Shown here piece after piece: positions 156-15,213 of a stretch of 15,213 bases of DNA. Location: the NCBI GenBank assembly GCA_016840035.1, contig JAEOTC010000059.1, positions 1-15,213 of the forward strand, given 5' to 3'. Position 1 is the stretch's first letter; each line of letters starts with the position of its first letter. The DNA comes from Candidatus Hodarchaeota archaeon (GTDB lineage Archaea; Asgardarchaeota; Heimdallarchaeia; Hodarchaeales; Hodarchaeaceae). A program made the position numbers and the translations under genes. The notes under the pieces are model-generated. The model saw nothing but the letters and a program-made list of their open reading frames with translations. It searched no databases and had not been told where the DNA came from.

Positions 156-1004
156 ATGCATTTCATGTTATATCCCCCTATTTCAGTTCAAGGTTCCGTA
201 ACAAGGGAACTAAAGTTGCAAGGTATTGAAACACTTAAATCATTTACTGTGACTCCAGAAAAGATTAGCTTCACTATCAATCGTGAGGGATCTGAACAAA
301 CAATTGAAATAATTACTTTCAATTCTCCCGTTAATGATGTTAACTTCCGTATCAGTCCTGATGATGATTACCCGCTCGAATTAATGCCGATGGTTACAGT
401 AGAGTTCTTTGAAGGACTAGCACAGTTAATTGAAGGTTATACACTCATAACGGAAGTTGCTCCTGAAACTGGTTATCTTGAAGTATTCCGAGGGGATGTG
501 TACCCAATTTCTATTAGAAGAGCGGATAAAAATCTTTACGCCACTACTGCGGAATTACGTCCCTTGCGAAAAGATTACTTTGTTGCTCTCAATAATTTTC
601 TGCAAATCGATTTTGAAGAACAGCTTGAAACTTCACTAGCTACTTTTGTTGAGAATGTTCTAAATCCCATGACTACTACAATGAAGGAAGTCTTCGAATT
701 AGAAGAGAAAAAAGAACGTGAAGGGTCAGTTGTAACTGTAATCAAAGACGACTTTCATAGCTTAATTTCCCGAACGGAAGAATTAATTAGTATTGTTGAT
801 TATAACATGGATCAAACTGCTGAGCGGAATAAAGCATTTCTTCGTCTGAGTTTGCCCGTTATGCTGAAACAAGCGATTTTAGATAATATAGTTGAATATG
901 TGAAGTTTAATAATGCTGCTAATTCCATCTCATTATCAATCGAAAGTCGAAAAGAAGTTGATGCAGAGAGCCTAGCAGATTTAATTACAAAATTCTTCCA
1001 TTAA
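156..1004 (+). CDS. Hypothetical protein, 282 aa, acidic and soluble
   Basis: Long ORF with GGAGA at 144-148, 7 nt before the ATG. No family motif recognised with confidence. Confidence 0.8.
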   Translation: MHFMLYPPISVQGSVTRELKLQGIETLKSFTVTPEKISFTINREGSEQTIEIITFNSPVNDVNFRISPDDDYPLELMPMVTVEFFEGLAQLIEGYTLITEVAPETGYLEVFRGDVYPISIRRADKNLYATTAELRPLRKDYFVALNNFLQIDFEEQLETSLATFVENVLNPMTTTMKEVFELEEKKEREGSVVTVIKDDFHSLISRTEELISIVDYNMDQTAERNKAFLRLSLPVMLKQAILDNIVEYVKFNNAANSISLSIESRKEVDAESLADLITKFFH

Positions 1005-1025
1005 ATTATTTTTCTTCATCTTTTT

Positions 1026-1031
1026 AGGTGA
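1026..1031 (+). promoter_or_regulatory. Shine-Dalgarno site AGGTGA for adenine deaminase
   Basis: AGGTGA lies 5 nt before the TTG at 1037. GGTGA is the typical archaeal SD core. Confidence 0.7.
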
Positions 1032-1036
1032 TTTAA

Positions 1037-2821
1037 TTGGATATTTCATTCCTTAAAGAGTTAATTTCATGCGCAAGAGGGGAAATTCCCGCGGATATTC
1101 ATATTTTGAATGGTACACTTATCAACGTTATCACAAGGGAAACTTATCTTGCAGATATTTCGATTTATAAGAATCGAATAGCTAACGTTGCCAAACCAGG
1201 AGTTCTCGATCCACAATACTGTAAGAAGGTTATTGATGCGCGAGACAAATATATTTCACCAGGATTTATTGAATCTCATTTACATATTGAGAGCACTATG
1301 CTCCCTCCATCAGAATTTGCTAAATTAGTTGTTCCTCAGGGAACAACAACGGTAATTATGGATCCTCATGAAATTGGGAACGCATTAGGAGAAAAAGGCT
1401 TAAAATTATTATTAGATCTTGCAGAAAATCAACCTCTACGATTGTTAATCGAAATTCCCTCTTGTGTACCCGCAGCTCCAGGACTTGAAACAACTCCTTT
1501 CACAATTGATGATGAAACAGTACGAACTTTAATTCAGGATGAACCCCGTTTCTATGGATTAGGAGAAGTAATGAATTACCCGGGAGTCTTATTCAAGAAC
1601 GAAAGTGTTTTGAATAAAGTTCTCCTAGGGAAGCAACTTTCAGTAATTGATGGGCATAGCCCTGGGGTCTCAGGAAGAGACCTAGATGCCTATATTGCAA
1701 CTGGTATTAAATCCGATCATGAAAGTACAACAGGAGAAGAATTACTGGAGAAATTGAGGAAGGGCATGATAGCAATGGCGCGAGAGGGTTCTTTCGCTAA
1801 GGATCTTCATAATGTTCTGAAATTACTTAAAGACAAAGATCTTGATTTACGAAATTGTACTCTTTGTTCTGATGATAGAAATGTCATAGATCTAGTATCA
1901 AACGGTCACATGAACGCTCATGTAAGAATGGCTATTTCTGAGGGCATAGATGCGTTGACTGCAATACAAATGGTAACAATTAATGCAGCCACATACCTTA
2001 ATCTTCATAATGAGATCGGTTCAATTTCTCCTGGTAAGAAGGCCGATATCGTGTTACTGGATGATTTGAAAGAAATCAAGGTATCGTCTGTTATTTTCAA
2101 TGGAGAGGAGGTTTACACAAATAACCAACTATCATGGGAATTTGCGGATTCTACCATCCCTGATTGGGCACAAGATACAATAATTCTTCCTTCTTCTATT
2201 TCTGCGGGGGAGTTAAAAGCGAAAACATCTCTAAGAGATGGTAATTACCCCGTTAAGGTAATTGGTGTTATTCCTAATTCACTTCTAACTGATTTAAGGC
2301 AATTTAACTTAGAAGTAAGAAATGGTTGGATCCGTCCGAATCCGGAGGAGGATATTTTATCCATTTCAGTTATTGAACGATATGGAGTAAACGGAAATAT
2401 CTCAAATGCATTTATTCATGGATTTAAAATTACTGCAGAAAGGTTTGCTATGGCAACCACCGTTGCTCACGATAGTCATAACATGTTAGTAGCAGGTACA
2501 GACCATGAAACCATGGTTCAAGCTGTTAAACTTCTACAAGATATCAAAGGAGGGTATGTAGTCATTGCTGATGATAAGATTGGTAAAGTTCCACTGCCTT
2601 TTGCTGGATTAATGAGTATTCAATCATATCAAACCTTACTTCATGAATTAGAGGAAATAAACAGACTCTTTCATGATGGAGTATCAACTTTTAACGAACC
2701 ATTAATGGCTTTATCATTCATGGCACTACCAGTTATTCCACATTTAAAAATTACCGATAAGGGCCTTGTTGATGTAGATAAATTTGCATTCACGGAACTT
2801 ATTGCCGACACAAATCAATAG
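1037..2821 (+). CDS. ade: Adenine deaminase (AdeC, amidohydrolase superfamily)
   Basis: Motifs PGFIESHLHIESTM (HxH), DPHEIGN, EVMNYPGV, DGHSPG, SDHE, REGS, SDDR, GSISPGKKADIV, AHDSHN and LSFMALPVIPHLKITDKGL. Length of 594 aa is typical. Confidence 0.95.
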   Translation: MDISFLKELISCARGEIPADIHILNGTLINVITRETYLADISIYKNRIANVAKPGVLDPQYCKKVIDARDKYISPGFIESHLHIESTMLPPSEFAKLVVPQGTTTVIMDPHEIGNALGEKGLKLLLDLAENQPLRLLIEIPSCVPAAPGLETTPFTIDDETVRTLIQDEPRFYGLGEVMNYPGVLFKNESVLNKVLLGKQLSVIDGHSPGVSGRDLDAYIATGIKSDHESTTGEELLEKLRKGMIAMAREGSFAKDLHNVLKLLKDKDLDLRNCTLCSDDRNVIDLVSNGHMNAHVRMAISEGIDALTAIQMVTINAATYLNLHNEIGSISPGKKADIVLLDDLKEIKVSSVIFNGEEVYTNNQLSWEFADSTIPDWAQDTIILPSSISAGELKAKTSLRDGNYPVKVIGVIPNSLLTDLRQFNLEVRNGWIRPNPEEDILSISVIERYGVNGNISNAFIHGFKITAERFAMATTVAHDSHNMLVAGTDHETMVQAVKLLQDIKGGYVVIADDKIGKVPLPFAGLMSIQSYQTLLHELEEINRLFHDGVSTFNEPLMALSFMALPVIPHLKITDKGLVDVDKFAFTELIADTNQ

Positions 2822-2835
2822 GATGTATCAAATAT

Positions 2836-3213
2836 ATGGAAATTAAAGAGTATTGTATTTACTCCCTTGATTTCGCCTATACACGGATTTCTTCTCATAA
2901 TAATGTTGAAATAGATTTTAGAGGTATTTTAAGCTACCACACAAAGGATCTGGAATTATTCGCTCGTGTGACAAATGGTATCTTGGATCTGGACTCTGTG
3001 AACGTTTTTCTCTACTTCCAAGTTCAGCGTCATATAGATTTAATCCTTAAAGATATAAAAGAAGAAGAGATCGTAAATCAACGGCCCATTATAGTGAATC
3101 GTATAAAAATGGTAATAAGAAGGGAGTTAGAAGATATTGGCCTTGAATTCGTAAACTTCAAACAAATTTCCTTATGGAGTCATGGAGCTACCTCGAGAGG
3201 AATAGCGGCATAA
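2836..3213 (+). CDS. Stand-alone SPFH/band-7-like core domain protein, 125 aa
   Basis: SHNNVEIDFRGILSYHTKD…QVQRHIDLILKDIKEEEIVNQRPIIVNRIKMVIRRELEDIGLEFVNFKQISL follows the SPFH core pattern (TkDnv.v.v…y.v.D…lr.iig…leei…R..i…i…l…l…Gi.i..v.i). No TM segment or coiled-coil tail. Confidence 0.6.
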   Translation: MEIKEYCIYSLDFAYTRISSHNNVEIDFRGILSYHTKDLELFARVTNGILDLDSVNVFLYFQVQRHIDLILKDIKEEEIVNQRPIIVNRIKMVIRRELEDIGLEFVNFKQISLWSHGATSRGIAA

Positions 3214-3223
3214 TATCATTTTA

Positions 3224-4186
3224 CTAGTGATTTATCTCTTTCTTGATCGTTCGTACTTCAAACGCTCTCAGTTGAACCTGTTCTACACTTGGAGAATATT
3301 TATGATGCCCCTGTGATTCCACATAATATGAAGCGAGTGAGGCAGCTAATTTTGCGGTTTCCTCAATGGGATTCTTATTTGATACTCCATAAATTAATCC
3401 TGCGTAAAATGCATCTTGCCAACCATTGACAGTAATTTCATCAGTGATAGGTCCATCAGTGACCTTAATCTTTTGGTTTTTTGAGTAAACTACTACTTTC
3501 GACCGTGATTCCATTGAAATTATATATTTGAGTCTGGGAAATTTGATTAGGAAATCAGAACGAGATTCTTTAGCCTTTTTTTCAAGTATTTGCAGCTCTT
3601 CCTCATTGCAGACAAAGATTGACACTGTTTCTAGAAGTTGAGAGAATCTCCATTGAGAGATTTCCCTTATATTCCCATCAGGGGAATAAACAATGGGTAT
3701 GTTCTTGTTTGTGTCATGGATGAAATTAAGAAACTTTACATCAGCTTCAACTTTGCCAGTTCCAACAAATACAACCTTTAATTTTTCCAATACTTCAGTT
3801 GGGAATATATTTTCCAATGAATACTCTGCAAGATAATTATAGCAGTTATCCTGTTGTAGGGCTATGTAATTATCATTATTATCAGTTAAATGAAAATTAC
3901 AGGCAGTTTCTCTTTCCTCATCATGAAACAATTTTAATTTCACCCCTAACTGTTCAAAATAGGGTTTTAAGTTCCATTCAAAATCTTTACCAACAATTGA
4001 AGTAAGAACAGGGGAACTACCAAGTACAGTTAACCCATAAACAATATTAGAAGCCATTCCATCATATTCTCTATACGCATTTCCAGCTTGATGTACATCC
4101 GATTCAGTAAGGGCTGAAAAATCTGTCAAAACTCTAAAATGTAATTTATTTGCCACTTTTCCGATTACTAAAATTTCAGAATTCAT
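3224..4186 (-). CDS. PfkB/ribokinase-fold protein (nucleoside-kinase-like) with degenerate catalytic motifs
   Basis: GMASNIVYGLTVLG, SIVGKDF, CNEEE and DAFYAGLIYG…AKLAASLAS match the PfkB layout. The canonical DTTGAGD reads TVNGWQD. Confidence 0.8.
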   Translation of the reverse strand: MNSEILVIGKVANKLHFRVLTDFSALTESDVHQAGNAYREYDGMASNIVYGLTVLGSSPVLTSIVGKDFEWNLKPYFEQLGVKLKLFHDEERETACNFHLTDNNDNYIALQQDNCYNYLAEYSLENIFPTEVLEKLKVVFVGTGKVEADVKFLNFIHDTNKNIPIVYSPDGNIREISQWRFSQLLETVSIFVCNEEELQILEKKAKESRSDFLIKFPRLKYIISMESRSKVVVYSKNQKIKVTDGPITDEITVNGWQDAFYAGLIYGVSNKNPIEETAKLAASLASYYVESQGHHKYSPSVEQVQLRAFEVRTIKKEINH

Positions 4187-4226
4187 TTTTCTTGTTCACG
4201 TCATTCCTATTTCTGAAAGCTGAATA

Positions 4227-5117
4227 TTAGCTTGATCTAACAAGAATACTCGCATATCCGACCGTGTACCCTCCTCCTGGTCTGATATCAGTACTATTTG
4301 CATATTTTAAAACTTCTACTGAAGGTGTTCCAAGTTCCTTTGCAGTTTGAATAAGTGTGAAAATTGGTGCATACCCACACATTGTCATCCTAATCTTTTG
4401 TCTAAACTTGTCGGCCTCATCAATATTCATAGATTCTAAATAGGAAAGCATCGTTTTATCATTTTTGACAACAAGTTCATAATTATGTTCGTGTGAGAAG
4501 TCGCTACTTGAAACTATCAATACTCGTTTTTCTGAGTGAGATTTAATATACTCTACCAAAAATGTTGAAAGAGTAGACACGGTGGGGTTGTAGGACTGAT
4601 CCCCAATGCAAATTGGGACAATCTTAAACTTATCCTGATACAGATATTGGAGGAATGGTAATTGGATGTCTATTGAGTGTTCATTTACATGAGCAAGTCG
4701 CTCAAATCCTATTCGATTCTGAAGTGGTCCGAAATCATATGTTTTTGCATAATTCACAAATTCGGTATCAATTCTGACCTGCCCTAGTGGATTTTGCCAA
4801 TGTCCCTCAGGATAGATTGAAATAGGTGCCCCCATGCCCTGGTGATTTGGCCCCAATATCACGACTGTATCAAGATTTTCTAGGCGTTTAAATACTTCAG
4901 CGAATCCATGAGAAGCGATAGGGCCACTATAAACGTATCCCGCATGAGGAGAGACAATTCCTAATAGATTCGGGTCAAAATCTCTATTTTCTGGATTCTC
5001 AAGGGGATCCTCGCCATATCCCCACTGTTTATCAAGAAACATATTATGTATCTGTTTTCTTAAGCCTTTTTCGGTACCTTCATACCAACTACCTGCATGT
5101 CGACTTTGTCGATTCAA
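4227..5117 (-). CDS. amrB: MEMO1 family / AmmeMemoRadiSam system protein B
   Basis: Motifs RHAGSWY, SPHAGYVYSG, ILGPNH, EHSIDIQLPFLQ, SSDFSH, TMCGYAP and VGYAS. TTG start. Confidence 0.93.
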   Translation of the reverse strand: MNRQSRHAGSWYEGTEKGLRKQIHNMFLDKQWGYGEDPLENPENRDFDPNLLGIVSPHAGYVYSGPIASHGFAEVFKRLENLDTVVILGPNHQGMGAPISIYPEGHWQNPLGQVRIDTEFVNYAKTYDFGPLQNRIGFERLAHVNEHSIDIQLPFLQYLYQDKFKIVPICIGDQSYNPTVSTLSTFLVEYIKSHSEKRVLIVSSSDFSHEHNYELVVKNDKTMLSYLESMNIDEADKFRQKIRMTMCGYAPIFTLIQTAKELGTPSVEVLKYANSTDIRPGGGYTVGYASILVRSS

Positions 5118-5142
5118 TTTTCATCCCTACTAATTGTTAAGT

Positions 5143-5640
5143 CTAGGTTCCTAATTTCTTCATAATTCTAAAATGCTTTCCTCTTTGGACACCATACTTC
5201 TCTAATATATTCTTATTTTTGTCTTTGATTGTAAAATCTCCAGTATCTTTTCTAAGATAACCGACATAAATCTTCTCTTTTCTGATTTCAAACCATAAAT
5301 GGACGAAATTTTCAAATTGAGGATCTTCTGATTTATTAATAGTAAATTTACCCAACTTTTTTCCCTCACCTGTGATTTGAAGAGCATATTCTTCTTTTGC
5401 ATCGCGTTTTACGGATTTTTTTACCCCTGGAGTAACAGATATATTACGCAATCTCTTTTCCTCTGCATCTAGATAGGAGATTGCAAGTTGAGTTGCTTCT
5501 TCTATTGCTTCTTGAGTTGAAGTAGGGTCCGTAACATTTAGTTCAAATTCAATGAATATTTCTTCTGGTTCAAATTGACGCACTTGAATTTTCCTACTCC
5601 GCCCCACGCGTTTTGGCACAACCTGCCATTTATCTTTCAT
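5143..5640 (-). CDS. Hypothetical protein, about 165 aa (start moved to ATG at 5640)
   Basis: The GTG start at 5649 in the ORF track lies inside an AGGTGA SD (5651-5646), which sits 5 nt before the in-frame ATG at 5640 (MKDKW…). No family recognised. Confidence 0.75.
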   Translation of the reverse strand: MKDKWQVVPKRVGRSRKIQVRQFEPEEIFIEFELNVTDPTSTQEAIEEATQLAISYLDAEEKRLRNISVTPGVKKSVKRDAKEEYALQITGEGKKLGKFTINKSEDPQFENFVHLWFEIRKEKIYVGYLRKDTGDFTIKDKNKNILEKYGVQRGKHFRIMKKLGT

Positions 5641-5673
5641 AACTATCACCTTTTGTTTTACTTCGAAAGAAAG

Positions 5674-5790: not shown

Positions 5791-7212
5791 TTACTCAGAT
5801 GATTGTTTGAGATCCTTCTCAAGTATCATTTCATGAATGGCTTTTGCTGCTTTTCGACCTGCTTCCATGGCTAAAATTACAGTTGCTGCACCCGTTGCTA
5901 CGTCTCCTCCACAGAAAATTCTTTCACGAGTTGTTGCTCCTGTTGCTTCATCATGCACAAATGTGCCCCACTTTGTAATTTCCAATCCATCAGTTGTTTG
6001 AGCAATTAATTGATTTGGACGTTGACCTATGGCGATAATAACCGTATCCACAGGAAAAATGAATTCTGTTTCAGGGATAGGTATTGGTCTTCTACGTCCT
6101 GATGCATCCTTTTCTCCTAAATCCATCTTCATACATTTAAGACCGACTACGTTCCCTTTGTTATCTCCAATAATTTCTAGAGGAGAGGTTAGTTCTCCTA
6201 TTACGACACCTTCTTCTTTGGCATGAATGATTTCTTCAAGACGTGCTGGGATTTCTCCTTCTGATCTCCTATATATAATATCCACCTCACGCGCACCCAA
6301 TCGTAGAGAGGTTCTAGCACAATCCATTGCAACATTTCCTGCTCCAATGACTGCAACTTTTTCTCCAATTGTAACAGGTGTATCGTAGTCTGGGAACTGA
6401 TATCCTTTTAATAAATTCACCCTAGTAAGAAATTCGTTTGCTGAAAAAACTCCATTAAAGTTTTCTCCAGGTATCCCTAGAAAATTAGGTGTTCCCGCTC
6501 CCGAGGCAACATAGACTGCATTATTATTGTAATCTCCCAAAAGCTCATTGATTGTAATAGTTCTCCCAATAAGTACATCTTTTTCAAACTTTACGCCTAA
6601 AGCCATAACAGATTCTATTTCTTCATTTACTATGGCTTTTGGCATTCTGAATTCAGGAATTCCATATGTTAGAACTCCACCATATTCGTGTAATGCTTCA
6701 TACACAGTTACTTGATGACCCAATACTGCTAATTCCGCAGCACAGGTCAATCCTGAAGGTCCAGCTCCGACAACAGCCACTTTAGATCCGAGATCTTTAG
6801 AAATATTTCTATCACCACTCTGACCCTGATCAGCAACATAGCGTTCCAGATTACCGATGGAAATAGCATTGGGATGTATACAAAATTCTTGGCATTGATT
6901 TTCTTGAGGACAAACTCGACCAGTGATTGCTGGAAGGCTATTGGTGCATAAAATGATGTCCTTTGCCCCGTTGATATCATTTTCAATGACTTTTTCTATA
7001 AATTCGGGAATCTGAACATTAACAGGACAACCTTTCACGCACCGTGGTTTTTTACATTTTAAACAGCGAGAGGCTTCTTCTAAAGCTTCTTCGGGAGTAT
7101 ATCCTAACGCAACTTCATTAAAATTGCGAATTCGTTCACGGGATTCTTGAATATCCATGTGTGTGCGTTTTTTCTTAAGTTTCTGCTTTCTTTTCTCTCG
7201 TTCATCGCTCAT
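5791..7212 (-). CDS. nfnB: NfnB/SudA-type large subunit of NADH-dependent ferredoxin:NADP+ oxidoreductase (GltD-like), copy 1
   Basis: Fe-S motifs RCLKCKKPRCVKGCPV and GRVCPQENQCQEFC; also LERYVAD, FAD motif VVGAGPSG, YGIPEFR, GAGNVAMD, YRRS (NADP) and GGDVATGAATVILAM. Lies 15 nt downstream of an nfnA-type gene. Confidence 0.9.
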   Translation of the reverse strand: MSDEREKRKQKLKKKRTHMDIQESRERIRNFNEVALGYTPEEALEEASRCLKCKKPRCVKGCPVNVQIPEFIEKVIENDINGAKDIILCTNSLPAITGRVCPQENQCQEFCIHPNAISIGNLERYVADQGQSGDRNISKDLGSKVAVVGAGPSGLTCAAELAVLGHQVTVYEALHEYGGVLTYGIPEFRMPKAIVNEEIESVMALGVKFEKDVLIGRTITINELLGDYNNNAVYVASGAGTPNFLGIPGENFNGVFSANEFLTRVNLLKGYQFPDYDTPVTIGEKVAVIGAGNVAMDCARTSLRLGAREVDIIYRRSEGEIPARLEEIIHAKEEGVVIGELTSPLEIIGDNKGNVVGLKCMKMDLGEKDASGRRRPIPIPETEFIFPVDTVIIAIGQRPNQLIAQTTDGLEITKWGTFVHDEATGATTRERIFCGGDVATGAATVILAMEAGRKAAKAIHEMILEKDLKQSSE

Positions 7213-7227
7213 AATGTTCCAGACTCC

Positions 7228-9075
7228 TTAACTAGACCTTGTCATATGTTCCATGGCAATTCGTTCTTCATAGCGATAGGCCCGAGATCGCAAGGTTAAT
7301 TCATCGAAGTCAACCTTTAATCCATCGAAATTTGGTCCATCTACGCATGCAAACTTCACCTTCCCACCCACAGTAACGCGACAGGCTCCGCACATACCTG
7401 TTCCATCAACCATCAAAGGTGCTAGAGATACTATGGTTGGAATATTGTGTTTCTTTGTAAAATTCACTACTGCTCTCATCATTGGTATAGGGCCAACCGC
7501 AACAACATGGTCGAATTTTCTTCCTTCATCAATGAATTTCTTCAATAAATCTAATCCAAATCCATGATGACCCAAAGTCCCATCATCTGTAGCGATATGC
7601 AACTCATCACTGGCAGAATTCATATCATCTTGACAGATAAGAAGAGAACCTGTTCGAGCAGAGATGATACTTACGATATAATTGCCTTTCTCCCTCATTG
7701 CTTTTGTTTTTGGCAATACTGGGGCAACACCACATCCTCCTCCTAGTACTGCCACGGTGCCCCATTTCTCAATTTTTACAGGTTCACCAAGAGGCCCCAA
7801 TAGGTTTAAAATGTGATCTCCCGTGTCTAATTTACCCATCAACTTAGTACTTTTCCCAATTTTCTGAAAAATAAGAGTAATAGTTCCTGCATCTCTATCA
7901 AAATCAGCAACAGTGAGAGGAATCCTTTCACCATAATCTACTACACGGAGGATAACGAATTGACCAGGTTGACATTTTTCAGCAATTCGTGGAGCATCAA
8001 CAACCCACTTTATAATTTCGGGAGAAAGGTCGACTTTTTCGATTATTTTACTTTCTCCTTCGATAAATCTCTGGGCCAACACTGCAGTAATTTTTTCTGG
8101 TTCCTTTTCACTTTCTACTTTTTCTAAATCTGTAAGATATTTTGAAATTTGCATCGCTGCTGTCTGTCCTTCTGCAGCATCAATCCCCACTATTGAATCT
8201 CCTCTCGTCGCACTTCCCGCAGCAAATACTCCTTGTAAATTTGTATCTTGTTTTGCAGAATTAATTATTATTTTTCCTTCAGGAGTAACAGCTAATCCCG
8301 CATTCATGAATAATTCCCTATTTTTTATCTTGCTACTTAGAATGACCACAGTTTCAGTGGAGATAGAAACTCTTTCCCCAGTAGGGCTCTTTAAATTCAC
8401 TTTTTTAATCTTTATATCTCCCTCGAATGAAATAACTTCGTGTTGGAATCGAATATTTACAAAACTCTCATTTAACCTTCTTAACAGGGCTGGATGAGCA
8501 TCAAATGCATTTCTAGCTGTAATTAAACAGACATGTGCACCAACCGAATCATAATGCAACGCATTACGAACGGCCCATGAGTTGTGACCAATTATCGCAA
8601 CATTTTTCTCTTCATATTCACCTTCTGGAGGATTATTGTAGTAAATACCTTTTGAACGGTATTTTCTTTCTCCTGGAACATTGAGCTTCTTCGGATGTAA
8701 TCCAGTGGCAATAAGTACTGTTTTCCCTTCGTACATAATCTCTTCTGAGAAAAATTCACCCCTAACTACAGTTGAGTACACCCGTTTTATGTTTCCTTCC
8801 AGCTCAAACCGACTAACTTTTTCTGCATATCGGATTGTTGCCTTGTATTTCGCCTGACGTGCCATTTTATCAAGTAGTTCTTGACGTGTTATGCTAAAAA
8901 ACCCTGGATAGCCATCGACCATCATACTACCAGCGGTAGCAGATCCAGATCTAGCCTCAAGAACAAGAACACTTCGACCTAATTCAGCCGCGCGAATTGC
9001 ACAAGAAAGTCCAGCAGGACCGCCTCCCACACATATGACATCCCATATTTTTGATTCCAACAGATTTTGCTCCAA
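7228..9075 (-). CDS. nfnA: Fusion of an N-terminal thioredoxin-reductase-like flavoprotein domain (no CxxC) and a C-terminal NfnA/SudB (PyrK-like FAD/[2Fe-2S]) domain
   Basis: Residues ~10-316 carry DVICVGGGPAGLSCA, YPGF, LIATG and TNLQGVFAAG. Residues ~342-615 carry QPGQFVILRV, ERIPLTVAD, GPLG, GGGCGVAP, MVDGTGMCGACRV and CVDGP. The frame is continuous. Confidence 0.88.
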   Translation of the reverse strand: MEQNLLESKIWDVICVGGGPAGLSCAIRAAELGRSVLVLEARSGSATAGSMMVDGYPGFFSITRQELLDKMARQAKYKATIRYAEKVSRFELEGNIKRVYSTVVRGEFFSEEIMYEGKTVLIATGLHPKKLNVPGERKYRSKGIYYNNPPEGEYEEKNVAIIGHNSWAVRNALHYDSVGAHVCLITARNAFDAHPALLRRLNESFVNIRFQHEVISFEGDIKIKKVNLKSPTGERVSISTETVVILSSKIKNRELFMNAGLAVTPEGKIIINSAKQDTNLQGVFAAGSATRGDSIVGIDAAEGQTAAMQISKYLTDLEKVESEKEPEKITAVLAQRFIEGESKIIEKVDLSPEIIKWVVDAPRIAEKCQPGQFVILRVVDYGERIPLTVADFDRDAGTITLIFQKIGKSTKLMGKLDTGDHILNLLGPLGEPVKIEKWGTVAVLGGGCGVAPVLPKTKAMREKGNYIVSIISARTGSLLICQDDMNSASDELHIATDDGTLGHHGFGLDLLKKFIDEGRKFDHVVAVGPIPMMRAVVNFTKKHNIPTIVSLAPLMVDGTGMCGACRVTVGGKVKFACVDGPNFDGLKVDFDELTLRSRAYRYEERIAMEHMTRSS

Positions 9076-9283
9076 TCATTCCTGATATCATGAAACAGTA
9101 CGCATTAAAATAGCGATCTAGTTGAACAATGGTTATTGTCGCTCAATTATTGCGATAAACGATGAAGTATTTAATTGATATTCTCGTTCACAATCATGAA
9201 TATACCAAGATTTTTGAAGTTAAAACATAAAAAGAACGTAATAAGATCGAATTTGACCAATTTGATTTTTCGTAAGCAATCAC

Positions 9284-10252
9284 TTGATGGCAGCAAATAC
9301 AATGAAGATAGATCCATTTAGTACAAAATCTATGGTGCTGGAAAAATCACCCGAGACACGATCATTTTCGTCAAGCTTGATTGGATTTTACTTATGCTCT
9401 TTCGACACAACATATGGACTACAGATTCTCTACACAATACCACCAAGCTTACGCAAAAGCTCCGAAGAACATGACATTTTGAAGACGCATTATATATGGA
9501 AAGTTGAACATATCCCCATGCGCATAGATCTCAAGATTTCAGAGTTTATTTATTCTGCTCTTCAGCTACATGAATCAGACCCACAATCACCAGATGTATC
9601 AGCTACTGTAGAAAAGCCTATCTTCGGAATTGTATTCAAAATTTGGAAGGATGGTGAGTTAATTCATCCAGATGCTCTTGATCAATTTCGAAATGATCTC
9701 CAACTCGATTATTACTCCGATATAGAACTCCTATATAAACGGCAAATTTTAAAGCTAAATCCAGCGAAGCGACGAAAATATTTACAGCTCGCAGATAAAG
9801 CAGCAGAGATCGGGAAGTTCCTCAAATCTGAGTGGGAAAACCTAGTAAATAATGTTTCTAATATCGATATATTCTTTGAATCCCAAAAACTAACCTTTCC
9901 CGATTCCACTATTATATCATCAGAAAGAGAAGATCGTGAGAAGAATCTTTTTAAAATTCCAATTACTATGCGCGTATTACAAACTGAAGAGAGTAGTGAA
10001 GAAGTTTTAGTTATCTTAGTGAATCAATTGGAAACATTATTAGATGTAAAAATTAGGGTTTCAAAGAAAACCCAGTTTTTTAGTGAAAACCTTTGGGAAC
10101 AGGATCTTGAGGAATGGGCAATGAAAGAAGACATTATCCTTGAATTTCCTCGTTCATCAAAACTAGAGAGTTATATGCTAAAAATTACAAGTAAGAACCA
10201 TACTGTGGCAATTAAATCGTTAGAGATTGGCCCAGCAGATACAAAGTTATAA
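9284..10252 (+). CDS. Putative longin/uDENN-like N-terminal domain plus shared C-terminal beta-sandwich domain (paralog A)
   Basis: IGFYLCSFDTTYGLQILYTIP fits the uDENN/NPR2-type opening (hydrophobic strand-F-D/H-x3-G-x-strand-P). Aligns with the next gene at both ends. Start uncertain (TTG 9284, ATG 9287 or a later ATG). The ORF is solid; the fold call is inference. Confidence 0.65.
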   Translation: MMAANTMKIDPFSTKSMVLEKSPETRSFSSSLIGFYLCSFDTTYGLQILYTIPPSLRKSSEEHDILKTHYIWKVEHIPMRIDLKISEFIYSALQLHESDPQSPDVSATVEKPIFGIVFKIWKDGELIHPDALDQFRNDLQLDYYSDIELLYKRQILKLNPAKRRKYLQLADKAAEIGKFLKSEWENLVNNVSNIDIFFESQKLTFPDSTIISSEREDREKNLFKIPITMRVLQTEESSEEVLVILVNQLETLLDVKIRVSKKTQFFSENLWEQDLEEWAMKEDIILEFPRSSKLESYMLKITSKNHTVAIKSLEIGPADTKL

Positions 10253-10263
10253 AATAGCTACTG

Positions 10264-10276
10264 GAAAAGGTTATAT
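10264..10276 (+). promoter_or_regulatory. Candidate BRE-TATA promoter (GAAAAGG-TTATAT) upstream of paralog B
   Basis: A purine-rich BRE-like run directly precedes TTATAT in the 94-nt intergenic gap. A GGAGA SD lies just before the TTG at 10347. Confidence 0.4.
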
Positions 10277-10346
10277 CCTAAATTTCGAAATAGTAACGAA
10301 ATTGATTTGAATTTGAGAAGCTATGTAATTATTTGGAGAACTAGTT

Positions 10347-11354
10347 TTGCCGAATGGGAAAGCGAATCCAATTGATTCAATTCATTTAGAGGTCAAAGAT
10401 CGATCATTTGGTTTTTTTATATACTTTTATGACGAACTACAGGGTCATTCGCTTTTATTTACCTATCCAAAGACTCTTATGTCAAATGAAAACGAAAGGG
10501 CAATTCTAGCTATTCACCCCGCTTGGTGGCATCAAGATCAGTTTTTAAAAACTGAGAAATTTTCCACTATGGATCTTGAACTTAGTGGGGTTGTATACTC
10601 AGCTACTCTCTTTGAGTGTGAAGCTCAACGCTTGAAGAGACGATCTGGTATGAAAGCGATGAAATGGCAAAAAGAAAGGTTTATTCTTATAGTAAAAGCT
10701 CCCTCTGAAGTATCATTTATTGCTCAAGAAATTCTTCAAGAGTTTTATTCACGGATTAAAGAAGATTATAGTAAACATCTTTGTTATTTAGTTAGGTTCC
10801 AGCTCGAATCATCTGCACAAATGTCAAGTAAAGATTTCTCCCCAGAAAATGCTAAATTAGTTGAAGAAGAGCTTACTGAAATCTGTCAGTCATTATCTCC
10901 AAATACACCACTTAATAAACTCGAACCTTTTCTCCAAGAAGACGACAAGATAGAGAAACGTAAAAAATTACCAGGTTCTCCTTCTCATTCTGTTCCAAAG
11001 AAGAAGCTAAGATTCGCAATTCCAAGGAGTAAAGACACGACAGTAATCGCTCGAATTAATAATAAAGAGATTCGAGGAAGGCAAAAAACAGTAAAAATTC
11101 TATCAATAGAGCGTGGGGATGAATCTATATCAATTTCTTTAAAAAATACGTCTCCCTTTAATTTAGATAATATCACTATTCGAGTTTATGAATCACGGGG
11201 ATTCTTTGGGAAGGATAAATTAGTTAAAAAAATAAAGAATTGGCAACAGAATGAGGTATATGGACTAGATTTTAAACCTGAAGTTGAAAATGGAATAAGG
11301 TATTTGCTTAAAATAGAAGATGAAGAAGATACTTTAAAAATTAAGAGAATTTAA
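10347..11354 (+). CDS. Putative longin/uDENN-like N-terminal domain plus shared C-terminal beta-sandwich domain (paralog B)
   Basis: FGFFIYFYDELQGHSLLFTYP opening; DLELSGVVYSA matches DLKISEFIYSA in paralog A; basic/Pro linker; C-terminal IRV-x5-FF-x11-W domain. TTG start with GGAGA SD. Confidence 0.65.
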   Translation: MPNGKANPIDSIHLEVKDRSFGFFIYFYDELQGHSLLFTYPKTLMSNENERAILAIHPAWWHQDQFLKTEKFSTMDLELSGVVYSATLFECEAQRLKRRSGMKAMKWQKERFILIVKAPSEVSFIAQEILQEFYSRIKEDYSKHLCYLVRFQLESSAQMSSKDFSPENAKLVEEELTEICQSLSPNTPLNKLEPFLQEDDKIEKRKKLPGSPSHSVPKKKLRFAIPRSKDTTVIARINNKEIRGRQKTVKILSIERGDESISISLKNTSPFNLDNITIRVYESRGFFGKDKLVKKIKNWQQNEVYGLDFKPEVENGIRYLLKIEDEEDTLKIKRI

Positions 11355-11371
11355 GGAAATGGGATTTTAAT

Positions 11372-11770
11372 TTGAACGTAACACAAGTTAAAGATTTAAT
11401 GACAAAGGATTTAATCACTATTAGTGGAGAGAAAAGTGTAATTTACGCTTCAGAATTAATGATGGAAAAAAATATTGGATCTATTCTTGTTTATGACGAT
11501 TCCACAGTGATAGGAATTATAACGGAACGTGATATTGTAAGAAAAGTAATTACAGATTGTAAAGATCTATGTGATGTGAAAGCGCGAGAAATTGCTACTA
11601 AAGAAATCATCACAATCGCCCCTCAAGACACAATTGAGCACGCATTAATTACCATGTACAGAAGAAAAATTAAACGAATCCCAGTCAAAGATCCTGAATC
11701 TCATGAATTAGTAGGAATTATTACTACTCATGACATCATTGCCGCATTTAATACGTTAGAACTTAGGTAA
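11372..11770 (+). CDS. Stand-alone CBS-pair (Bateman) domain protein
   Basis: Motifs VKDLMTKDLITI, LMMEKNIGSILV, GIITERDIV, IKRIPV and LVGIITTHDII give two tandem CBS repeats in 132 aa. Confidence 0.93.
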   Translation: MNVTQVKDLMTKDLITISGEKSVIYASELMMEKNIGSILVYDDSTVIGIITERDIVRKVITDCKDLCDVKAREIATKEIITIAPQDTIEHALITMYRRKIKRIPVKDPESHELVGIITTHDIIAAFNTLELR

Positions 11771-11779
11771 AGGTTGTAT

Positions 11780-13513
11780 CTATTTTTTCACATCGTTGGC
11801 AACAATTATTTTTGACATTATCTTACCATGTAGATCATTAATGGTAAGTAGATATTCTTTTTCGTTTTTATCAATTCTTGGGCAATCAAGCTCATGTTCT
11901 TCACCAGGAGACCATCGAGGGACAGTTTTTTCCAACATAGTCGTTTCAAAGAATTCGTGTACATGAGATACTCGTATTTTAACTTGGTCAAGATCTTTAT
12001 CTGAAATATTAATAATATTGAGCTTTAAATAAACCGTATTTGGATAAATTGCAGCATGCTTCAATTCTAATGAGCCTTTAGGAACTCCAAAACTCTCAGG
12101 TGTTTCCTCAACTTGTGGAAAGAGGTCTTCATGAATAGCCGTTGCTGCTCGTCTTCCAGCACCCATTGCTGAAATCACTGTAGCAGCTCCAGTCACGATA
12201 TCCCCACCTGCATAAACATGAGGTTTACTTGTTCTTCCCATTTCATCTGTTACAATATTTCCCCATTTATTTACTTCTAAATCGGGAGTGGTCATTGTGA
12301 TTAAAGGATTGGCTTTATTTCCTATTGCTATGATAATTAAATCAGTATTAAGCACAAAATAATCCCCATCTATAGGTACAGGTCGTGCCCGACCTGATTT
12401 ATCTGGTTCACCTAGTTGATAGCGTTGGCACCTGATTGATTCAATACGTCCTTTTTCGTCACCCATAATTTCTACTGGGTTGGATAATAACTTAAATTGA
12501 ACACCTTCCTCTTCTGCGTGGTGAATTTCCTCTAATCTTGCAGGCATTTGTTCTCTAGATCTACGATATACGATATGGACATTATCAGCATCTAATCGTA
12601 AGGCAGTTCTTGCTGAATCCATAGCTACGTTTCCTCCTCCAACTACAACCACATTCTTACCCGTTAATAGGGGTGTATTATACTTAGGATAAAGATAAGC
12701 TTTCATCAAATTAGATCGTGTTAGATATTCATTCGCGGAATAGACACCCTGCAAGTTCTCTCCAGGGATATTCATGAACACAGGTAATCCAGCACCAACG
12801 CCGATATACACTGCATCATATCCATCTTCAGTAAATAATTCATCAATCCCACGAATTCTCCCAATAACAGAGTCGTATACGAACTTAACACCAGCGTTTT
12901 CTAGATTCTGAATTTCATATTGGACTACAGATTTTGGTAAACGAAATTCGGGAATTCCGTAAACAAGAACTCCTCCACCTAAATGAAACGCCTCATAGAC
13001 AGTTACTTCGTATCCTTGTTGAATCAAATCACCAGCAGTTGTTAATCCTGAGGGCCCACTACCTACAATTGCTACCTTTTTCCCATTTTTCCTCACTCGC
13101 TCTGGTTCAGGAACTTGACCAGTAAGTCGTTCATAATCTGCGACAAATCGCTCTAGATTTCCTATCCCTACTGATCTACCTTTCTTTCCTCTAACGCACA
13201 ATCCTTCGCATTGAGATTCTTGTGGACAAACACGACCACAAACAGCTGGGAGTACATTCCTTTCTTTAATTTTCCAAGCGGCCTCAAGGAACTTTCCTTC
13301 TTGAACTAATGCTATAAACTCGGGGATTGGAACACGTACAGGACATCCATCCACACATTTAGGTTTCTTACAATTCAAACATCGATTTGCTTCTTGGATA
13401 GCCATTTCTTCAGAATATCCATACGGAACTTCACGAAAATTCCTGGCCCGAACCTGAGGAGGCTGAGTTGGCATATCAGTAAAGGGAATTTGCATACGTT
13501 CCTTAGACTTCAT
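11780..13513 (-). CDS. nfnB: NfnB/SudA-type large subunit, copy 2, with an extra ~100-aa C-terminal domain
   Basis: Motifs RCLNCKKPKCVDGCPV, GRVCPQESQCEGLC, GSGPSG, GGGNVAMD, YRRS and GGDIVTGAATVISAM. The core ends near AIHEDL (residue ~464); residues ~481-577 are extra. ATGA overlap with the upstream nfnA stop. Confidence 0.9.
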   Translation of the reverse strand: MKSKERMQIPFTDMPTQPPQVRARNFREVPYGYSEEMAIQEANRCLNCKKPKCVDGCPVRVPIPEFIALVQEGKFLEAAWKIKERNVLPAVCGRVCPQESQCEGLCVRGKKGRSVGIGNLERFVADYERLTGQVPEPERVRKNGKKVAIVGSGPSGLTTAGDLIQQGYEVTVYEAFHLGGGVLVYGIPEFRLPKSVVQYEIQNLENAGVKFVYDSVIGRIRGIDELFTEDGYDAVYIGVGAGLPVFMNIPGENLQGVYSANEYLTRSNLMKAYLYPKYNTPLLTGKNVVVVGGGNVAMDSARTALRLDADNVHIVYRRSREQMPARLEEIHHAEEEGVQFKLLSNPVEIMGDEKGRIESIRCQRYQLGEPDKSGRARPVPIDGDYFVLNTDLIIIAIGNKANPLITMTTPDLEVNKWGNIVTDEMGRTSKPHVYAGGDIVTGAATVISAMGAGRRAATAIHEDLFPQVEETPESFGVPKGSLELKHAAIYPNTVYLKLNIINISDKDLDQVKIRVSHVHEFFETTMLEKTVPRWSPGEEHELDCPRIDKNEKEYLLTINDLHGKIMSKIIVANDVKK

Positions 13514-14400
13514 GATGTTTCCTCTTCCTTTGTTCTTTCAAGAAATTTAGCTAAGGAACGACACTCGGGTGAAAAATTTTGTAACCCCAATGTTTCTTCA
13601 GTAATATAGGATGTATTACGTACATGTATTAATTCCTCCCAATCAATTTTATGTGCATCGAATTCTGGTCCATCTACACAGGCAAATTTAGTTTTCCCAT
13701 CGTACGACAATCGACAACTTCCACACATTCCTGTTCCATCAACCATGATTGTGGTAACCGTTGCATATGTTGGAATACCCCCTTTCTCTTTTGTAAGCTT
13801 GGAAACTTTACTCATCATAACATTGCAGCCAATAACTTTAATATGATCTATCTCACGTTTCTGAACCTCAATCATATTATCAAGAATATCATAAATATGT
13901 CCACGCTCACCTTTTGACCCATCAGTAGTTACGAGAATTACTTCGTCACTTACAGTTTTGTATTCTTCTTCATAATAAAGGAGATTTTCATTTTTAGCTT
14001 CAATTATTGTGATTACAATATTTCCAAGTTCCTTGAGCTTCTTTGCTATTGGATATACCGCACCAACCCCATAACAACCCCCACCAAGTACAACTGTCCC
14101 AAAATTGTCAAGATATGCTGGTTCACCAAGAGGGCCGACAATACTATAGAAGCAATCTCCTTCCTCCATGAAAGCCATTTTCGAAGTGGATAATCCTAAC
14201 TCCTGAACTATAAAGGATATTGTTCCTTTTTCCTCGTCCCAATCCAGCAATGTCAAGGGAATTTTCTCTGAATGCTCATCAACCATTACTAAAATAAATT
14301 GTCCAGCTTTAGCTTTCTTGGCTATTCCAGGAACTTTGATATCTAGTTTATAGAAATTCGGTACGAATTCTTCTTTCTTAAGGATATTAAATTTGGACAT
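13510..14400 (-). CDS. nfnA: NfnA/SudB-type small subunit (FAD, [2Fe-2S]), copy 2
   Basis: Motifs KAGQFILVMV, EKIPLTLLD, GPLG, GGGCYG, TTDGSKG, MVDGTGMCGSCRL and CVDGPEF. AGGTGA SD at 14411-14406. Confidence 0.9.
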   Translation of the reverse strand: MSKFNILKKEEFVPNFYKLDIKVPGIAKKAKAGQFILVMVDEHSEKIPLTLLDWDEEKGTISFIVQELGLSTSKMAFMEEGDCFYSIVGPLGEPAYLDNFGTVVLGGGCYGVGAVYPIAKKLKELGNIVITIIEAKNENLLYYEEEYKTVSDEVILVTTDGSKGERGHIYDILDNMIEVQKREIDHIKVIGCNVMMSKVSKLTKEKGGIPTYATVTTIMVDGTGMCGSCRLSYDGKTKFACVDGPEFDAHKIDWEELIHVRNTSYITEETLGLQNFSPECRSLAKFLERTKEEETS

Positions 14401-15211
14401 CTATTTCACCTTTTCCTTTTGATTGGTTTATAGCCTGTTTAGTAGTAATATAAAGTCTGAACTCTTCCACTTTATCGGCTATAGGAACACCCATATACTC
14501 AAGACTTTGTTTCGCAACTTTTGGAATAATAATGTCGCCAGAATTTGAAATTTCATCCTTTAATTCATCAATCGTATTGTAGTTAAATCCGTCAAATCCC
14601 ATTGTATGAGCTAGTTTACTAAAGATCATCCAGCTGGGAAGAGCATCACCAGGCGGCTCAACAGCTTTGTTTATTGGGTATTTCATGTACTCCTCCCCTG
14701 ATTTAGTCCCATCCTCTTCAGTAAACACGGTGGTTGGAAGAACGACTTCAGCAAATTCAGAGGTGTCTGATTCGTAAATATTTTGAAGGATAAGGAGTTC
14801 TATACCCTTTAACTGAGAAAACAACGCTGAATCAAAAGTGGTTACAATTACTTTTATTCCTCGGGTATGTAAACTACTAATCCCTTCTTCATCATACACG
14901 ATAGGATGAGTACTGATTTTCTGTGCGAATTTTGACAAAACGAAAACAGATTCATCAGTGAGAGAGGGTGAAATCGCTATCCCAATTTCTTCTGGTTTAT
15001 ATTCTTTAAGCAAATTAGCAGTATGTGATATTGCCTCCTCCCAAGAAACAGGGTGTTGTTCCTCTTTTATCAATTTACGTTTGATAGTAGGGTATTTCAG
15101 CCGATCACGACTATTAACTAAAGCGGGAATACAAAAACGTCCTTTAACACAGTATTCACGACGAGCAGATAATTCATATGGAGGATGTACGTTTACAACT
15201 TTATCCCATTT
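14387..15211 (-). CDS. NuoG/FdhA-like (molybdopterin-oxidoreductase fold) Fe-S subunit, 5'-partial and internally shortened
   Basis: The frame stays open past the track's 15073 start to the window edge: KWDKVVNVHPPYELSARREYCVKGRFCIPALVNSRDRLKYPTIKRK…VSWEEA. This shows CxKGRF, RLxxP and SWEEA; later LLILQNIYESDTSEFAEVVLP…EEDGT and AVEPPGDALPSWMIF. Overlaps nfnA by 14 nt. Confidence 0.8.
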   Translation of the reverse strand, partial: KWDKVVNVHPPYELSARREYCVKGRFCIPALVNSRDRLKYPTIKRKLIKEEQHPVSWEEAISHTANLLKEYKPEEIGIAISPSLTDESVFVLSKFAQKISTHPIVYDEEGISSLHTRGIKVIVTTFDSALFSQLKGIELLILQNIYESDTSEFAEVVLPTTVFTEEDGTKSGEEYMKYPINKAVEPPGDALPSWMIFSKLAHTMGFDGFNYNTIDELKDEISNSGDIIIPKVAKQSLEYMGVPIADKVEEFRLYITTKQAINQSKGKGEIDVQI

Positions 15212-15213
15212 AA

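Follow-up and report, generated by a model that had tools for sequence, protein, structure and literature searches.

A RagA-like GTPase, longin proteins and a flavoenzyme with a shared Ig-like tail form a conserved gene module in Asgard archaea

Results and discussion

The stretch of DNA analysed here, referred to as the window, is 15,213 bp long and constitutes the complete contig C286 of a Hodarchaeales (Asgard) genome from a marine-sediment assembly (G000; 4.3 Mb, 87% complete). It encodes two longin-type proteins, longin A and longin B, a CBS protein and an iron-sulfur (FeS) flavoprotein of the NfnB type, NfnB2, and both longins and NfnB2 end in the same immunoglobulin (Ig)-like tail. Comparison with related genomes shows that these genes belong to a conserved unit, which consists of a RagA-like GTPase, one or more longin::tail proteins (the double colon denotes a fusion), a CBS protein and an FeS flavoenzyme that carries the tail. 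The unit is not specific to Nfn enzymes. We consider it highly probable that this module is real and functionally linked to its RagA/Gtr1-type GTPase, here named Rag300. An initial annotation, made from the letters of the window alone, had described the locus as a redox- and energy-sensing longin module, an interpretation that our results support in part. The gene order it gave, the CBS gene and the gaps of 208 and 9 nucleotides (nt) on either side of the longin-CBS cassette were all confirmed by open reading frames. The genes of the module are listed below with positions in the window, or in the adjoining contig C43, and strand.

9284-10252, plus strand: longin A, with a longin-like N-terminal domain joined by a helical linker to the Ig-like tail (coded by 9917-10234; tail profile E = 6e-27)
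10347-11354, plus strand: longin B, with a longin domain at about residues 18-190 and then the Ig-like tail of about 100 residues (coded by 11049-11351)
11372-11770, plus strand: stand-alone CBS pair (Bateman module); PF00571 97 bits in two stretches
11780-13513, minus strand: NfnB2-like FeS flavoprotein::tail, 577 amino acids (aa), of which residues 1-465 are the enzyme; TIGR01316 603 bits (cut-off 472)
11783-12118, minus strand: Ig-like tail of NfnB2, residues 466-577; tail profile E = 1e-33
13510-14400, minus strand: NfnA2-like FAD/NAD/[2Fe-2S] subunit; NF004862 332 bits (cut-off 220), DHODB_Fe-S_bind
14387-15211, minus strand: C-terminal part of a NuoG-like FeS protein with a Molybdopterin domain; the gene runs on into contig C43
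Contig C43 (L021) 8120-9022, plus strand: Rag300; Gtr1_RagA PF04670 75.8 bits (cut-off 22)

The CBS gene starts 17 nt past longin B and is separated by 9 nt (11771-11779) from the convergent NfnB2 gene, which in turn overlaps NfnA2 by 4 nt.

Linkage to a Rag-type GTPase

The initial annotation had remarked that the window holds no GTPase gene. This is correct for the window itself, but a RagA/Gtr1-type GTPase is encoded on the adjoining contig. Window positions 15087-15213 are identical in 127 of 127 nt to the reverse complement of C43 12351-12477, and we therefore conclude that contigs C286 and C43 abut. Onward from the window, C43 carries the rest of the NuoG-like gene (536 aa when joined across the contigs, as in L005), a NuoF-like and a NuoE-like gene, and then, about 3.3 kb beyond the window end, the gene of the 300-aa Rag300. 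The result is a co-directional array Rag300-NuoE-NuoF-NuoG-NfnA2-NfnB2::tail in which Rag300 comes first. The Rag300 sequence has a Rag/Gtr G domain with the HKxD form of the G4 motif; its G motifs read GLSGCGKT (GxxGxGKT), DFGGQE, the Rag-type HKYD and TSIY, and beyond the G domain lie about 130 further residues that are conserved. Its nearest relatives of solved structure are an archaeal GTP-binding protein, then RagA/Gtr1 (E about 1e-19), then RagC/Gtr2 and Arf (about 1e-10).

For the neighbourhood comparison 29 further loci were annotated, of which 27 are distinct (one was a repeat fetch and one a longin pair from a genome already counted). They are labelled by family, with f1 being the family of the window and f13-f17, f20 and f32 the others sampled. 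A Rag300 orthologue adjoins a tailed flavoenzyme, either NfnB or FrhB-like, in 25 of the 27 loci, and the linkage is found in families f1, f13-f15, f17, f20 and f32. Orthologues match Rag300 with phmmer E values of 1e-74 to 1e-170, compared to 1e-8 to 1e-20 for paralogues. The two exceptions are lone extra longin B paralogues from a single genome (G074), with no longin A, CBS gene, tailed enzyme or Rag300 nearby:

L053 9586-10611: lone longin B paralogue
L054 9594-10616: lone longin B paralogue

Of these 25 loci, 22 also have a longin::tail gene, either adjacent to the tailed enzyme or 9-33 kb from it. In the remaining three (L076, L078 and L063) the longin gene or the GTPase lies outside the fetched stretch; L063, of family f16, has the module genes, with no Rag300 in the fetched part of the contig.

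Within f1 the module takes two forms. The arrangement of the window recurs in L005, L006, L055 and L056, with the NfnB2::tail fusion itself present in L005, L055 and L056, while L004, L007, L008 and L057 have the order longin A-longin B-CBS-FrhB-like with Rag300 convergent. The CBS gene follows the longin gene in all nine f1 module loci, and longin A is present in this family only. An FrhB-like protein is the tailed enzyme in half of the closest relatives, and outside f1 this holds for every family. In families f13-f15, f17 and f32 the orthologue of Rag300 (E about 1e-74 to 1e-93) is clustered with a single B-type longin and an FrhB-like enzyme, the module of L061 forming a contiguous operon. 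A CBS gene is near the module in all families but one (the f32 locus has none), and in L062 and L063, which represent two families, the longin is fused to four CBS domains (longin::tail::CBSx4). All four enzyme-centred loci of f20 show an FrhB-like gene followed by Rag300 and then by a protein of about 390 aa; in two of them the longin genes, sometimes a tandem pair, are found 9-33 kb away on the same contig. The check proposed in the initial annotation, synteny and co-occurrence across relatives, thus gave a divided answer, as longin::tail genes do accompany a tailed enzyme (22 of 25) but this enzyme is often FrhB-like and not Nfn. The proposal that the longin pair, CBS protein and tailed redox enzyme make up one signalling unit, in analogy to the eukaryotic longin heterodimers that control small GTPases, gains in strength and detail from the conserved Rag300 linkage, the CBS-longin fusion and the co-occurrence, and loses its Nfn specificity.

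A rare tail shared by longins and flavoenzymes

The extension of NfnB2 (about 110 aa) matches the C-termini of longin B (E = 6e-7) and longin A (E = 8e-7), as expected from the shared domain that had been noticed at the outset. A tail profile was built from 30 tails and used together with jackhmmer. It detects three copies in the genome, all of them in the window (E = 1e-33, 6e-27 and 2e-24 overall), and has no other match in the 4.3 Mb. In a library of 1.84 billion representative proteins the tail was found in 125 proteins at E ≤ 1e-3. The length classes checked in the library comprise four architectures, namely longin::tail, FrhB::tail, arrestin-like::tail and longin::tail::CBSx4. A fifth, NfnB::tail, came from the fetched loci only. 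Tail matches are present in 39 of 41 f20 genomes, mostly three per genome.

The arrestin-like::tail architecture is that of the protein of about 390 aa, which has an Arrestin_C match below threshold and ends in the Ig-like tail of the module. It was located as follows, with positions given for the respective locus:

L061 4700-5914: arrestin-like::tail protein
L059 3370-4542: arrestin-like::tail protein
L062 4762-5922: arrestin-like::tail protein
L069 16420-17592: arrestin-like::tail protein
L075-L078: arrestin-like::tail protein in each

The gene lies downstream of Rag300, directly so in most loci outside f1 and at a distance of about 1-4 kb in two. With the query used, the protein was not found in the genome of the window, which is 87% complete.

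The tail is retained at the same position when the enzyme is exchanged, as seen in close relatives of which some have NfnB2::tail and others FrhB::tail, as one would expect of a domain for docking or tagging. In a tree of the tails those of NfnB group with those of FrhB, a suggestive result only, given a weak split (77/90) and long branches. The fold of the tail, taken from residues 246-335 of longin B, is generic, with Z values of 8-9.7 to many unrelated sandwiches.

One could suppose that there is no functional unit at all, and that we are looking at synteny inherited among kin combined with a generic Ig-like tail. Related genomes are indeed not independent, and the Ig-like fold is common, as the Z values just given illustrate. 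The arrangement, however, has outlasted rearrangements, fusions and a change of enzyme and is kept across families whose proteins share only 25-45% identity, and the tail as recognized by sequence does not extend beyond this gene set and some 125 of 1.84 billion proteins. We disfavour this explanation and regard it as very improbable.

An asymmetric pair of longins

Longin A and longin B are full-length paralogues (BLASTP E = 4e-10, 23% identity), in agreement with the paralogous pair of the initial annotation. Neither has a Pfam match. Longin B was modelled with AlphaFold2 from 33 homologues (predicted local distance difference test, pLDDT, 70), which gave an N-terminal beta-beta-alpha-beta-beta-beta-alpha domain (strands 22-29 and 33-40, helices 42-67, strands 75-79, 82-92 and 109-119, helix 120-140), a helical linker and a seven-strand sandwich. 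The model has the longin fold, with VIA-align Z values of 8.2-10.1 over 112-142 residues to solved longins. For residues 18-190 the list is headed by FLCN (6nzd_H, Z = 10.1 over 142 residues), next to which stands NPRL2 (8fw5_B, Z = 10.0); a Lokiarchaeal longin is also among the matches. Foldseek with the whole model mostly picked up matches to the Ig-like tail, namely GH3 C-terminal domains; the N-terminal domain was matched only by the Asgard longin 8yqg and the GATOR1-KICSTOR chain 9v0j_A. Among the structural neighbours in the Atlas, all with a template modelling (TM) score below 0.5, are clusters of NPR2, of SMCR8 and of Avl9/DENND11, as well as a Heimdall cluster partly with Folliculin matches. 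A search of the ESM Atlas by features placed second (0.89) an Asgard cluster in which 19% of the members carry NPR2, which we treat as a lead only. The model of longin A (pLDDT 53 from 12 sequences) was too poor for a fold search, and longin A is called a longin solely because it is homologous to longin B. The label "longin-like" given to both proteins at first is upheld by a model fold for longin B, and for longin A it depends on the homology.

The two longins differ in two motifs, which in B-type sequences were counted in 23 sequences from eight families, six of them f20, plus a copy from L075. The first, FDExxGHxPL at the turn between strands beta1 and beta2, is present in all B-type sequences aligned from the eight families. 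The second, SxRxKxR[SA]G[LM] in the loop between beta4 and beta5, is kept in all of them except one f20 copy (L075, which has KKERAG). In longin B the residues of this Arg loop are R95, R99 and G101. Both arginines are invariant in a 33-sequence alignment (A1); outside A1, none of the aligned B-type copies has lost R95, and R99 is Lys or Ala in four. Longin A sequences (8 of 8 aligned) have no Arg in the beta4-beta5 loop and carry G-L in place of G-H. A comparable asymmetry is found in f20, where independently duplicated tandem longin::tail pairs consist of one canonical copy and one copy that is degenerate for the GH and Arg-loop motifs:

L077 16542-18610: tandem longin::tail duplicates
L079 6483-8665: tandem longin::tail duplicates

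These motifs make longin B a candidate catalytic subunit and longin A a candidate non-catalytic partner. The asymmetry resembles that of NPRL2/NPRL3 and FLCN/FNIP, in which the catalytic Arg is carried by one subunit (PMC8213707).

A possible regulator of an archaeal Rag GTPase

These results lead us to propose that the module is a regulator of an archaeal Rag GTPase similar to GATOR1 or FLCN and tied to the redox and adenylate state of the cell, a reading to which we give about an even chance. According to this proposal, longin A and longin B would pair up, as NPRL2-NPRL3 or FLCN-FNIP do, in a heterodimeric platform that acts on Rag300, most likely by serving as its GAP (GTPase-activating protein) and using the Arg loop of longin B. 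The CBS pair would report the adenylate state and the flavoenzyme the redox state of NAD(P)H/ferredoxin (or F420), with the Ig-like tail serving as a docking domain that joins the FeS flavoenzyme (NfnB2 here, FrhB-like elsewhere) to the longins. The GTP/GDP state of Rag300 would then mirror energy and redox supply. The parts of the proposal differ in how far we trust them. That the longins regulate Rag300 appears slightly better than an even bet. An Arg-finger GAP as the mechanism is a tentative choice with the balance leaning against it, and so is the view that redox and adenylate state feed into the module and are not its output. It is also conceivable, though less likely than not, that the module is a prokaryotic forerunner or sister of the GATOR1/FLCN-Rag nutrient switch. 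An Arg-finger longin heterodimer would then set the nucleotide state of a RagA-like GTPase, a docked flavoenzyme working with NAD(P)H/ferredoxin or F420 would sense the redox state and CBS domains the adenylate charge, and a private Ig-like dock would keep the components assembled.

Several observations weigh against the proposed Rag regulator. The scores of longin B to FLCN and NPRL2 tie with those to longins of SNAREs, adaptors and TRAPP; Sec22, VAMP7, adaptor sigma, sedlin, CPLANE, BLOC-3 and DENND1A all fall within about 1.5 Z of the top matches, and the fold alone is therefore not diagnostic of a GAP. None of the 33 members of the longin B family matches Folliculin (PF11704), NPR2 (PF06218) or NPR3 (PF03666) at E ≤ 5, and the family profile found no chain among PDB sequences at E ≤ 10. 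The C-terminus of longin B (residues 246-335) is a seven-strand Ig/FnIII-like (fibronectin type III-like) sandwich and not a DENN or NPRL2-type domain. The equivalence of the conserved Arg of the longin domain to Arg78 of NPRL2 or Arg164 of FLCN could not be established. The beta1-beta2 motif is GH, with a Pro two residues on, and not the GP reported at the beta1-beta2 loop of GAP longins (PMC12290439). In f20 the longin gene is 9-33 kb from the enzyme-GTPase operon (two loci) or outside the fetched stretch (two loci). The genome of the window contains at least 25 Gtr1_RagA matches at E ≤ 1e-5, twelve of them strong; with so many Rag-type genes, proximity to Rag300 alone is a weak argument and the case therefore rests on conservation. 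Finally, binding among the proteins, GAP activity, the sensing of NAD(P)H, ferredoxin and adenylates, and the direction of signalling are features that we infer. A complex prediction with longin A (residues 25-200), longin B (residues 15-200), GTP and Rag300 gave a median of 0.55, compared to 0.50 in a control with longin B replaced, and is not used as evidence.

The direction of signalling could also be the reverse. Rag300 and the longin platform might act upstream, with the tailed flavoenzyme being recruited, assembled or switched through its tail, so that electron flow would be regulated and not sensed. Here Rag300 stands first in one co-directional array with the subunits of the enzyme, and elsewhere it lies between FrhB::tail and arrestin-like::tail genes; proteins with arrestin and longin folds are typically adaptors, and the tail is kept through the enzyme swap as would be expected of a cargo tag. 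Such an effector role explains the CBS-longin fusion no better than sensing does, however, and no membrane anchor or localisation signal was identified in the module; we consider it rather unlikely.

Another way to read the locus would leave the GTPase out, with longin::tail and CBS proteins being regulatory or assembly subunits of the oxidoreductase and Rag300 a neighbour for other reasons, for instance shared regulation with a major facilitator superfamily (MFS) transporter. Here the tie among longin scores is relevant, as longins that do not act on GTPases (SNAREs, adaptor sigma/mu) score as well as FLCN and NPRL2. CBS pairs directly regulate many enzymes, and the Pfam and PDB sequence searches yielded no link to GAP families. 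What such an accessory role fails to account for is that in at least seven Asgard families, and with two types of enzyme, the tailed protein has kept the same Rag300 orthologue as its neighbour, and a purely structural function would leave unexplained an Arg loop that is lost in the duplicated partner. We regard this alternative as improbable.

Relation to known systems

Rag GTPases and longin-domain GAPs are central to nutrient sensing in eukaryotes, and their origin is an open question. Asgard genomes are rich in Rag-like GTPases and longin proteins. The locus offers a matched set from among them, with one RagA-like GTPase, an asymmetric longin pair, a CBS sensor and redox enzymes that share a rare tail. 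The proteins are all small, soluble and amenable to expression and assay, and they constitute a testable partner set for an archaeal relative of the nutrient-sensing switch of eukaryotes. If the link holds, energy and redox regulation of Rag-type GTPases would predate eukaryotes and the target of rapamycin (TOR) pathway.

One of the closest parallels is GATOR1 (NPRL2-NPRL3-DEPDC5; SEACIT in yeast), the GAP for RagA/B and Gtr1, which likewise contains a paralogous longin pair with a conserved longin-domain Arg in one member only. The GTPase linked to the module is also RagA/Gtr1-like, and the longin B model matches both NPRL2 (8fw5_B, Z = 10.0) and a longin subunit of the SEA complex (8adl_S, Z = 9.6). 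Unlike their GATOR1 counterparts, the longins of the module do not belong to NPR2 or NPR3 by sequence, they end in an Ig-like sandwich and not in an NPRL2-type domain, and their partners are a CBS protein and FeS flavoenzymes. DEPDC5 was not found with the queries used, and Asgard archaea are not known to have a TOR pathway. FLCN-FNIP (and C9orf72-SMCR8), a GAP complex of longin-DENN proteins, offers a second parallel. FLCN is the best match of longin B (6nzd_H, Z = 10.1) and FNIP2 is also matched (6ulg_N, Z = 9.2), and the module would share with this pair the logic of a heterodimer with one Arg-bearing subunit; it also has a conserved glycine motif in the beta1-beta2 loop. It differs in that its longins have no DENN domain, no Folliculin match in Pfam and GHxP instead of GP. 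Heimdallarchaeial longins of "FLCN/SMCR8 type" with a GP motif and an Arg finger have been reported in a paper with 15 Asgard longins (PMC12290439).

A small GTPase encoded near regulators of the roadblock/longin superfamily, with the neighbourhood conserved, is also seen in MglA-MglB and in an Asgard Rab-like GTPase accompanied by LAMTOR1-like and DENN proteins; Liu et al. stress a conserved Asgard operon with a non-Rag GTPase (bioRxiv 10.1101/2020.10.19.343400). The present module differs from both in that its GTPase is of the Rag type and its regulators are tied to redox enzymes and a CBS protein by a private shared domain. As for adenylate sensing, AMPK gamma and other CBS adenylate sensors are comparable to the CBS pair, and the four CBS domains of the L062 and L063 fusions equal the number in AMPK gamma, but the module has no kinase partner.

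Longins resembling NPRL2 and FLCN, as well as GTPases of the Rag type, have been described from Asgard archaea (Liu et al., bioRxiv 10.1101/2020.10.19.343400; PMC12290439; PMC10933270). Tran et al. (2024) noted that GTPases are generally not in operons with their regulators, which makes partners hard to predict from genome layout (PMC10933270). Full-text literature searches returned no paper joining Asgard, Rag, longin and CBS. The earlier statement that no description of such a system was known holds for the module, which none of the papers found describes. FLCN/NPRL2-like longins of Asgard archaea, on the other hand, had been reported before (Liu et al., bioRxiv 10.1101/2020.10.19.343400; PMC12290439).

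The second Nfn operon and other neighbouring genes

A second Nfn pair is encoded upstream of the longins, in divergent orientation:

5791-7212, minus strand: NfnB1-like FeS flavoprotein, 473 aa; Fer4_20 and Pyr_redox_2, TIGR01316 552 bits (cut-off 472)
7228-9075, minus strand: fusion of a thioredoxin reductase (TrxR)-type domain to NfnA1, 615 aa; Pyr_redox_2 at residues 12-290, NfnA-like part at residues 343-613
9076-9283: divergent intergenic region of 208 nt between TrxR::NfnA1 and longin A

Domain and profile matches verify that the two pairs carry different fusions, TrxR::NfnA1 in one and NfnB2::tail in the other, as first described; the tail profile gives no match in NfnB1. From their domains and profile scores the Nfn proteins are predicted to be NADPH:ferredoxin oxidoreductases of NfnAB/SudAB type, with a GltD-type large subunit (two [4Fe-4S], FAD) and a PyrK-type small subunit (FAD, [2Fe-2S]). 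The NfnA-like part of the 615-aa fusion scores 382 bits with NF004862 (cut-off 220) and is of the FAD/NAD/[2Fe-2S] subunit type. Its TrxR-type domain (residues about 10-320) has no CxxC in residues 1-330, where Cys occurs only at about positions 15, 24 and 182; a disulfide reductase is therefore unlikely, and the domain may be a TrxR-type flavoprotein acting with ferredoxin/NAD(P)H. The TrxR::NfnA1 fusion, divergent from longin A, is kept in all nine f1 module loci sampled, with L004 having it called as two genes and NfnB1 missing. The TrxR::NfnA/NfnB1 operon adjoins the module within f1 only.

The intergenic region contains the motif TTTGAAGTT at 9213-9221 (plus strand), about 65 nt upstream of longin A. 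Six of eight related loci have it again at the matching position, either unchanged or in the closely similar form AAAACTTTTGAAGTTG, which is an inverted repeat, AACTT-N3-AAGTT; it may be an operator or promoter element. Of the sequencing runs listed as carrying the stretch of the window, none is an RNA run and all are marine-sediment DNA runs.

The genome shows a large expansion of Rag-type genes, and contig C43 carries two further features next to Rag300:

Contig C43 (L021) 6304-7755, minus strand: MFS transporter, divergent from Rag300
Contig C43 (L021) 951-4695, minus strand: second operon, with a Rag-type GTPase of 334 aa, a degenerate Rag-like protein of 314 aa, a protein of 268 aa and a Rag-type GTPase of 310 aa

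The MFS transporter is divergent from Rag300 in all eight f1 loci that reach that far, and none was seen beside Rag300 in other families with the query used. The pairing recalls the transporter-Rag coupling of eukaryotes. The second Rag operon is kept in L007, L008 and L057, where its final gene is cut off. On the other side of the module, the window carries one more block of genes:

1037-5649: adenine deaminase, PfkB-family kinase, Memo-like protein and a 168-aa protein with no assignment

This block is found upstream of the module, in whole or in part, in seven of the nine f1 module loci.

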